From the NCBI RefSeq assembly GCF_003334385.1, contig NZ_QOWN01000001.1: a stretch of DNA of 64,000 bases; one strand, written 5' to 3'. The translations under genes and the position numbers were made by a program. Positions 58,935 through 59,265 of the stretch are shown here, one piece after another. Origin of the DNA: Escherichia coli. GTDB lineage: Bacteria > Pseudomonadota > Gammaproteobacteria > Enterobacterales > Enterobacteriaceae. The notes beneath the pieces are model-generated. The model ran no database searches. It had not been told where the DNA came from and saw only the letters and a list, made by a program, of their open reading frames with translations. Within the stretch, counting starts at the first letter, position 1; every line of letters begins with the position of its first letter.

Positions 58935-59145
58935 TTAGATCGATTAAGCCAATTTTTGTCTATGGTCATTAAATTTTCCAATATGCGGCGTAAATCGTGC
59001 CCGCCTCGCGGCGGGATCGTTTACACTTAGCGAGTTCTGGAAAGTCCTGTGGATAAATCGGGAAAATCTGTGAGAAACAGAAGATCTCTTGCGCAGTTTA
59101 GGCTATGATCCGCGGTCCCGATCGTTTTGCAGGATCTTGATCGGG
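58935..59145 (+). promoter_or_regulatory. dnaA promoter region with DnaA box and GATC cluster
   Basis: DnaA box TGTGGATAA at 59048..59056 and at least 6 GATC sites between 58938 and 59145, upstream of the dnaA GTG start. Confidence 0.8.
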
Positions 59146-59265
59146 CATATAACCGCAGACAGCGGTTCGTGCGTCACCCTCAAGCAGGGTCTTTTCGACG
59201 TACGTCAACAATCATGAATGTTTCAGCCTTAGTCATTATCGACTTTTGTTCGAGTGGAGTCCGCC

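Follow-up and report, generated by a model that had tools for sequence, protein, structure and literature searches.

The dnaA control region is a core part of cell-cycle control in Escherichia coli, and is well characterized. It ties synthesis of the initiator to DnaA-ATP activity, to replication fork passage (by way of Dam and SeqA), and to growth rate (by way of ppGpp). The K-12 version, the dnaAp1/dnaAp2 regulatory region, was reportedly described by Hansen et al. 1982, Braun & Wright 1986, Campbell & Kleckner 1990 and Speck et al. 1999. Two promoters read into the gene (PMC5835720). A DnaA box lies between them, both are repressed by DnaA, and the box is reported as essential for autoregulation (Hansen & Atlung, PMC5835720). 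Menikpurage et al. (PMC8203912) report that deletion of the consensus box does not abolish autoregulation, and that full repression needs the ATP-DnaA boxes, AGATCT. Autoregulation also survived removal of box 1 in Polaczek & Wright 1990 and Smith 1997, as these are cited in PMC8203912. Boxes 1 and 2 bind both DnaA-ATP and DnaA-ADP, whereas boxes a, b and c need DnaA-ATP (PMC5835720). Box1 and Box2 are described as activators of p2 when DnaA-ATP is low, and as the nucleus of a repressing oligomer when it is high (Iuliani et al., PMC466948).

The same region is described as having ‘9 GATC sites within 225 bp’ (PMC5835720). One of these falls in the p2 -35 (PMC5835720) and another in the p2 -10 (PMC5835720, PMC466948); with three close ones downstream of the start, they make up the five SeqA GATCs at p2 (Iuliani et al., PMC466948). 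Methylation raises p2 activity approximately 2-fold, and the region remains hemimethylated, in a SeqA-dependent manner, for about one fifth of the doubling time (PMC5835720). This prolonged hemimethylation in K-12 is credited to Campbell & Kleckner 1990 and Lu 1994 in the accounts given by PMC5835720 and PMC13337833; a model of sequestration is presented in the latter. The hexamer CCGCGG upstream of +1 is the Travers discriminator, a determinant of ppGpp and growth-rate control of p2, and translation begins at a GUG codon served by a weak GGAG site (PMC5835720).

Other loci are controlled by DnaA in related ways. The mioC and nrdAB promoters resemble that of dnaA in having strong and weak DnaA boxes close together, either ahead of the promoter or overlapping it, and in undergoing DnaA-ATP-dependent repression (PMC5835720, PMC8203912); the dnaA promoter differs from them in that its DnaA control is joined by a GATC cluster and a stringent discriminator. 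The second classic locus of SeqA sequestration, oriC, shares with the dnaA region consensus DnaA boxes and a GATC density about 10 times the average. It has more boxes (R1 and R4, which are exact, plus weaker ones), 18 GATCs in 365 bp, and AT-rich 13-mers, and it unwinds DNA for replication. The dnaA region, in contrast, is an operator for transcription, and its sequestration is briefer, lasting one fifth of the doubling time as against one third for oriC (PMC5835720).

The rpmH-dnaA spacer and its control elements

The DNA described here is a stretch of 64 kb (‘the window’), and the spacer of interest, 606 bp long (58660-59265), separates rpmH on the minus strand from dnaA on the plus strand. 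The dnaA gene begins with GTG at 59266, and is followed by dnaN, recF and the start of gyrB. The order of the flanking genes, rpmH and dnaA-dnaN-recF, is as in K-12, judging from the open reading frames and RefSeq annotation. The spacer and K-12 MG1655 are identical at 615 of 616 aligned bases (MG1655 coordinate = 3,942,995 minus window position). The sole difference is a G at 59013, where K-12 has A. At a threshold of at least 95% identity, the spacer is matched in 5425 of 5426 complete E. coli genomes. Given the near-identity to K-12, published K-12 maps can be transferred to it directly, and the locus is almost certainly the E. coli dnaA promoter/operator region, with its established DnaA autoregulation and SeqA sequestration. 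As such, it is textbook material, already known, and adds nothing new; what it confirms is the identity of the window as the oriC-dnaA part of an E. coli chromosome. It shares with the K-12 dnaAp1/dnaAp2 region the locus, the flanking genes, box 1, the 9 GATC sites, and the p2 -10, -35 and discriminator. The features are as follows.

58519..58659, minus strand: rpmH (ribosomal protein L34), the divergent left-hand neighbour; from open reading frame, translation and RefSeq annotation of identical DNA
58762..58790, minus strand: strong sigma-70-like putative promoter toward rpmH, TTGACT, 17-nt spacer, TACAAT; from a consensus scan (10/12 matches)
58888..58915, minus strand: second rpmH-direction promoter-like element, TTGCGC (58915-58910), 16-nt spacer, TATAAT (58893-58888); read from the sequence
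58889..58969, minus strand: ysdD, 26-aa small protein MTIDKNWLNRSNKDPGRSLRFTHQPV; RefSeq annotation and translation
58917..59142, strand not applicable: 9 GATC (Dam/SeqA) sites, at 58917, 58927, 58938, 59015, 59083, 59107, 59120, 59133 and 59139; by sequence count
59022..59027, plus strand: likely -10 of dnaAp1, the weak upstream promoter, TACACT; placed from the sequence and the published position of box 1 between p1 and p2
59048..59056, minus strand: DnaA box 1, exact consensus TTATCCACA; from a sequence scan, and identical in K-12
59069..59077, minus strand: TTTCTCACA, resembling DnaA box 2, with a single mismatch to the relaxed consensus TTWTNCACA; from the sequence
59081..59087, plus strand: dnaAp2 -35 region, with GATC 59083 and the ATP-DnaA box motif AGATCT (59082-59087); sequence and literature
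59104..59109, plus strand: dnaAp2 -10, TATGAT, overlapping GATC 59107; sequence and literature, kept in 56/58 species
59110..59115, plus strand: GC-rich discriminator CCGCGG (‘Travers box’), directly after TATGAT; sequence and PMC5835720
59120..59142, strand not applicable: three close GATCs (59120, 59133, 59139) just downstream of the p2 start; sequence and PMC466948
59151..59204, plus strand: conserved two-helix RNA structure in the dnaA leader; minimum free energy (MFE) fold, RNAalifold and covariation
59252..59268, plus strand: dnaA ribosome-binding region GAGTGGAG, GGAG at 59256-59259 and GTG start at 59266-59268; sequence and open reading frame

The presumed p1 spacer contains the substitution at 59013, one base before GATC 59015, and no feature is lost by it. 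The spacer of this strain is 100% identical to that of E. coli SCU-104.

An earlier note, made from this DNA alone, had drawn attention to a consensus DnaA box and to at least 6 GATC sites within about 210 bp between rpmH and dnaA. The box is real: the plus strand at 59048-59056 reads TGTGGATAA, the reverse complement of the consensus, TTATCCACA, and the match is exact. Aligned to the K-12 dnaAp1/p2 sequence (PMC5835720, PMC8203912), it falls between dnaAp1 and dnaAp2 rather than outside the promoter interval, and it is 48 bp upstream of the p2 -10. Only three exact copies occur in the window on either strand, and the other two are in oriC, at 17006 and 17186. By simple arithmetic, about 0.5 copies of a random 9-mer are expected in 64 kb, and about 0.0025 in 331 bp. 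The GATC count also holds. The interval in question, 58935-59265, contains 7 sites (58938, 59015, 59083, 59107, 59120, 59133 and 59139) spanning 205 bp. Two more, 58917 and 58927, lie just upstream, such that the canonical cluster begins at 58917, 18 bp before 58935, and comprises 9 sites in 226 bp. Box and GATCs alike are situated between rpmH and the dnaA GTG.

Adjacent sites in the nine-site cluster are 10, 11, 77, 68, 24, 13, 13 and 6 bp apart; only two of the eight gaps exceed 24 bp. Comparison of the count with expectation, which the note had proposed as a check, bears the cluster out: 9 sites are found where approximately 1.2 are expected. Judged against the window's own GATC rate, the Poisson probability of 7 sites in 331 bp is 0.0024, and that of 9 in 226 bp is 5.5e-6; the latter becomes about 1.6e-3 when corrected for the number of windows. 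Local shuffles that preserve dinucleotides reached 7 sites in 7 of 5000 trials, and 9 sites in none of 5000. GATC is the commonest 4-mer in 58917-59142, where every other palindromic 4-mer occurs at most twice. When 250-bp intervals throughout the 64 kb are ranked by GATC density, the dnaA region comes second, and oriC first.

The oriC sequence occupies 16905-17272, approximately 42 kb from the dnaA promoter, and has its 18 GATCs in about 365 bp. Its exact DnaA boxes, at 17006 (minus strand) and 17186 (plus strand), are R1 and R4, and 13-mer-like GATCTnTTnTTTT repeats are present at 17223-17251 (minus strand).

GATC is abundant in the window as a whole, and not only at oriC and dnaA: 345 sites are observed versus 251 expected from shuffles, and 345 is reached in none of 100 shuffles. 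A second cluster occurs inside the dnaA coding sequence (59919-60177), where 9 sites span 259 bp within a 276-bp stretch (59915-60190); none of 5000 shuffles reached 9. This agrees with a published remark that SeqA also binds GATCs inside dnaA. The coding sequence also contains, 70 bp in, a one-mismatch DnaA box, GTATCCACA, at 59336-59344 (minus strand), encoded by conserved Met-Trp-Ile codons. It could be a coincidence, or it could be an extra titration site.

The published p2 elements map onto the window unambiguously, and so, by this mapping, the p2 start must be at about 59116-59119. The p1 and p2 starts are both placed from reviews and sequence rather than from mapped 5' ends, and the positions of boxes a, b and c have the same basis. 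A stringent promoter has a GC-rich discriminator between -10 and +1, and CCGCGG at 59110-59115 is just that. Sites of the weak and ATP-DnaA types that overlap p2 are present as sequence, too, in the form of TTTCTCACA at 59069-59077 and AGATCT at 59082-59087, and both are conserved. The former we infer to be the published ‘Box 2’, and the GATCs at 59120, 59133 and 59139 we take to be those mutated in the published ‘m3SeqA’ reporter (PMC466948). The operator extends beyond the consensus box: repression is complete only with box 2 and the AGATCT sites as well. A generic promoter scan missed p1 and p2, which match the consensus weakly, and recovered only the rpmH promoter; the terminator search in the same scan found none.

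How these elements would work together can be outlined from the K-12 experiments. DnaA bound to box 1 (59048-59056) and box 2 (59069-59077) would nucleate a DnaA-ATP oligomer. This would extend across AGATCT (59082-59087) and neighbouring sites, which are weaker and depend on ATP, and would block RNA polymerase, the result being negative autoregulation; at low DnaA-ATP, boxes 1 and 2 would instead stimulate p2. Of the two promoters, p1 is probably weak, with its -10 near 59022, and p2 would be the main one, with its -10 at 59104-59109. Prior to replication, the 9 GATCs are expected to be fully Dam-methylated, which should lift p2 activity approximately 2-fold. A fork from oriC would then pass dnaA about 1 minute after initiation (PMC5835720), an estimate that follows from the location of oriC some 42 kb away in the same window, and would leave the cluster hemimethylated. 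SeqA, bound to close hemimethylated sites, would delay remethylation and keep p1 and p2 shut during part of the cell cycle. Finally, the CCGCGG discriminator would make p2 sensitive to ppGpp and growth rate. The note's interpretation of the locus, DnaA autorepression together with SeqA sequestration, is thus supported, in that both are experimentally established for the near-identical K-12 sequence (PMC5835720, PMC466948, PMC13337833) and would be expected to hold here. The sequence features, their statistical excess, the near-identity to K-12 and the deep conservation described below come from the present analysis; binding, repression and sequestration are carried over from published K-12 experiments.

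Conservation, and the roles of the GATC sites

For comparison, one genome per species was scanned for the dnaA coding motif EFSMW[IV]RPLQ, an anchor that is independent of promoter features. The scan yielded 120 loci, and in 110 of these the upstream sequence was long enough. Enterobacterales, Vibrionales and Aeromonadales are orders known to carry Dam and SeqA, and in all three, GATC is denser in the 350 bp upstream of dnaA than in the rest of the locus.

Enterobacterales: median 4.95 times the rest of the locus; 62/62 above background
Vibrionales: median 4.35 times the rest of the locus; 26/26 above background
Aeromonadales: median 2.3 times the rest of the locus; 13/13 above background

Of 63 Enterobacterales, 61 carry an exact DnaA box in the same orientation, usually 210-260 bp ahead of the dnaA start and at most about 330 bp; the counts are 3 of 26 for Vibrionales, and none of 13 for Aeromonadales. 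Individual elements were counted in full-length intergenic alignments of 58 Enterobacterales, in which an arbitrary 4-mer is conserved in a median of 10 species. Box 1 is identical, and on the same strand, in 57 of the 58. The block containing the box 2-like site (59066-59077) is highly conserved, and its TGTG core is kept in nearly all species. GATC sites vary considerably in their retention. Those at 58917 (57 species), in the p2 -35 (59083; 56) and in the p2 -10 (59107; 56) are the most constant, followed by 59133 (41) and 59120 (32). The weaker ones are 58927 (30), 58938 (28), 59015 (22) and 59139 (3). The likely p1 -10, TACACT at 59022-59027, is conserved in only 24 of the 58, and the exact CCGCGG hexamer in only 20; the dnaA ribosome-binding region is invariant, or nearly so, among the species compared. 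The comparison thereby ranks the published elements, and those under strongest constraint are box 1, box 2, and the GATCs of the p2 -35 and -10. Closer to home, the divergent E. coli strains O157:H7 and 22184 retain the box and all nine GATC sites.

In those same two strains, a change of AAG to TCA at 59042-59044 brings the GATC count to ten; the new site, at 59040, is four bases away from box 1. Farther afield, the GATC cluster has been lost from insect symbionts with reduced genomes (Candidatus Pantoea edessiphila and Pantoea sp. Nvir symbiont; three loci), which have 0-2 sites in the 350 bp. Two of these three loci have also lost the exact box. Loss of the cluster would fit with loss of Dam/SeqA control. 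In Vibrionales and Aeromonadales, GATC enrichment of 2-4 times is kept, the consensus box is mostly absent, and the leader RNA element discussed later is undetected.

Could the box and the GATC cluster be chance occurrences in an ordinary intergenic spacer? The GATC-richness of the window (345 versus 251 expected) does raise the local background somewhat. Nevertheless, nine GATCs were reached in none of the 5000 local shuffles, the exact box is expected only some 0.0025 times in 331 bp, and the box and p2 GATCs persist in 56-57 of 58 species, versus a median of 10. Moreover, each of the 101 loci that could be scored in the three orders has GATC enrichment upstream of dnaA. Because of these shuffle and conservation tests we regard chance as refuted, and its probability as negligible. 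What the cluster does is a finer question. It might serve mainly as a methylation-dependent promoter-strength element, through which Dam raises p2 directly, rather than as a target for SeqA. The two GATCs within the p2 -35 and -10, at 56 of 58 species each, are among the best conserved; p2 goes up about 2-fold upon methylation in vivo and in vitro, and is less active in dam mutants (PMC5835720, PMC13337833); and the -10 and -35 GATCs reportedly contribute little to SeqA repression (work cited in PMC466948). That reading does not sit easily with the prolonged, SeqA-dependent hemimethylation documented for the dnaA region (Campbell & Kleckner 1990 and Lu 1994, via PMC5835720), nor with the behavior of the m3SeqA reporter, which was uncoupled from fork passage (PMC466948). 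We consider it possible as the main role, and rather unlikely. The two roles are compatible, and so promoter strength adds to sequestration without replacing it.

The division of the cluster raises another alternative, which we rate slightly lower again: the upstream trio of GATCs (58917, 58927 and 58938) might serve the rpmH-direction promoter or ysdD instead of dnaA, making the ‘cluster’ two adjacent modules. The trio is spaced at 10-11 bp, and so occupies one face of the helix; 77 bp separate it from the next GATC; it is immediately upstream of the conserved minus-strand TTGCGC-16-TATAAT, with GATC 58917 kept in 57 of 58 species; and it is inside the ysdD reading frame. Set against this, the minus-strand element is only a putative promoter, PMC5835720 assigns all nine sites to the cluster at the dnaA promoter, and conservation of ysdD as a protein stops at Escherichia and Citrobacter. 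The three upstream GATCs may, we suspect, not be for dnaA alone. Sequestration of the dnaA promoters by SeqA, acting alongside DnaA autorepression, remains the preferred account, and there are points that count against it, too. The 13- and 24-bp spacings are not whole helical turns, and good conservation from genus to genus is limited to 4-5 of the 9 GATC sites. According to Wilkinson 2006 and Kedar 2000, as PMC466948 cites them, initiation synchrony remains intact when the three GATCs downstream of p2 are mutated, and those in the -10 and -35 add little to repression by SeqA. Since these published effects are modest, the physiological weight of sequestration at this promoter is modest as well.

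The rpmH side of the spacer

Two promoter-like elements point away from dnaA. The stronger, toward rpmH, has a -10 that is identical in 58 of 58 Enterobacterales, and a -35 that is identical in 53. The other is read on the minus strand from 58920 down to 58888, as GATCC-TTGCGC-16 nt-TATAAT, with GATC 58917 adjoining the -35. Positions 58888-58896 and 58907-58920 are mostly conserved at 90% or above among the 58 species. We take the element to be a probable second rpmH-direction promoter.

The ysdD gene overlaps this element. Its peptide is identical to YsdD, which is listed as a verified small protein of K-12 in PMC6001520, and its coding sequence contains three of the nine GATCs (58917, 58927 and 58938). 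The reading frame is intact only in Escherichia and Citrobacter. We considered the protein as the cause of conservation at 58889-58969, and rejected it: in-frame stops are present in Enterobacter, Leclercia, Pseudocitrobacter, Cedecea and others, and the DNA is conserved there all the same. The conservation is therefore at the level of DNA.

The ysdD stop codon overlaps the -10 of the 58888-58915 element. For this reason, ysdD would need to be transcribed from further upstream, antisense to dnaAp1.

A candidate RNA structure in the dnaA leader

One item in the region, the fold of the leader RNA, is possibly new, and it is the only one. It falls within the interval that the note addressed, but formed no part of the note's claim. 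It consists of two conserved helices at 59151-59204. H1 pairs AACCGC with GCGGTT (59151-59156 with 59162-59167). H2 pairs CGTGCGT with ACGTACG (59168-59174 with 59198-59204); inside it is a hairpin that varies between species (59176-59180 with 59186-59190). Both helices are part of the E. coli MFE fold, and RNAalifold recovers H2. Among individual species, each folded on its own, H1 appears in 36 of 51, and H2 in 34. The insert within H2 ranges from 8 to 64 nt, is unrelated in sequence, and usually forms a hairpin of its own.

Covariation argues for the same two helices. Across 51 species, 89.8% of cells are paired, versus 20-49% when the partner is slid, and 55 are double changes, versus 13-34. 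The observed covariation score was reached by none of 500 shuffles. A typical compensatory change converts AACCGC/GCGGTT to AATTGC/GCAATT. G.U cells outnumber A.C cells 93 to 16, an excess that points to sense-strand RNA rather than to a DNA palindrome. For the same reason, and since the half-sites change together, we think it unlikely that the inverted repeats serve as palindromic DNA sites for a protein dimer. A search of 775 kb with a covariance model made from 33 sequences found one match in the window and 13 non-seed matches at E-values of 2.2e-4 or lower, all in Enterobacterales; those whose positions were checked are just upstream of dnaA. In Vibrionales and Aeromonadales, the same search found nothing.

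Only these two local helices are backed by covariation. The whole p2 leader (174 nt) has a z-score of -0.37, and overall is not unusually stable. The statistics are suggestive rather than proof, because the aligned sequences are orthologous and related. Rfam 15 gave no match with an E-value of 1 or better on either strand of 58400-59500, and we found no mention of a structured E. coli dnaA leader in the reviews consulted (including PMC5835720 and PMC8203912) or in a full-text literature search. There is precedent for regulatory dnaA leaders, as far as the sources consulted describe them, in Caulobacter (control by the 5' UTR and nascent peptide) and in Bacillus subtilis (an antisense RNA over the dnaA 5' UTR). 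The enterobacterial leader has no sequence or structural relationship to either: it is a sense-strand, two-helix fold, and belongs to no Rfam family. As a tentative and somewhat doubtful proposal, we suggest that the Enterobacterales dnaA leader carries a conserved, uncurated, sense-strand RNA structure that may act post-transcriptionally on DnaA synthesis, through mRNA stability, translation or the binding of a factor. If true, this would add a layer to the known transcriptional control of dnaA, and the covarying structure could merit a small experimental test.

Just 3' of the structure is a further block, CAACAATCATGAATG (59206-59220, plus strand), that is unpaired and moderately conserved (approximately 70-90%). 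It includes an AUG, at 59214, with no obvious Shine-Dalgarno sequence, and the frame downstream of this differs in length from genus to genus, from 2 codons to more than 30.
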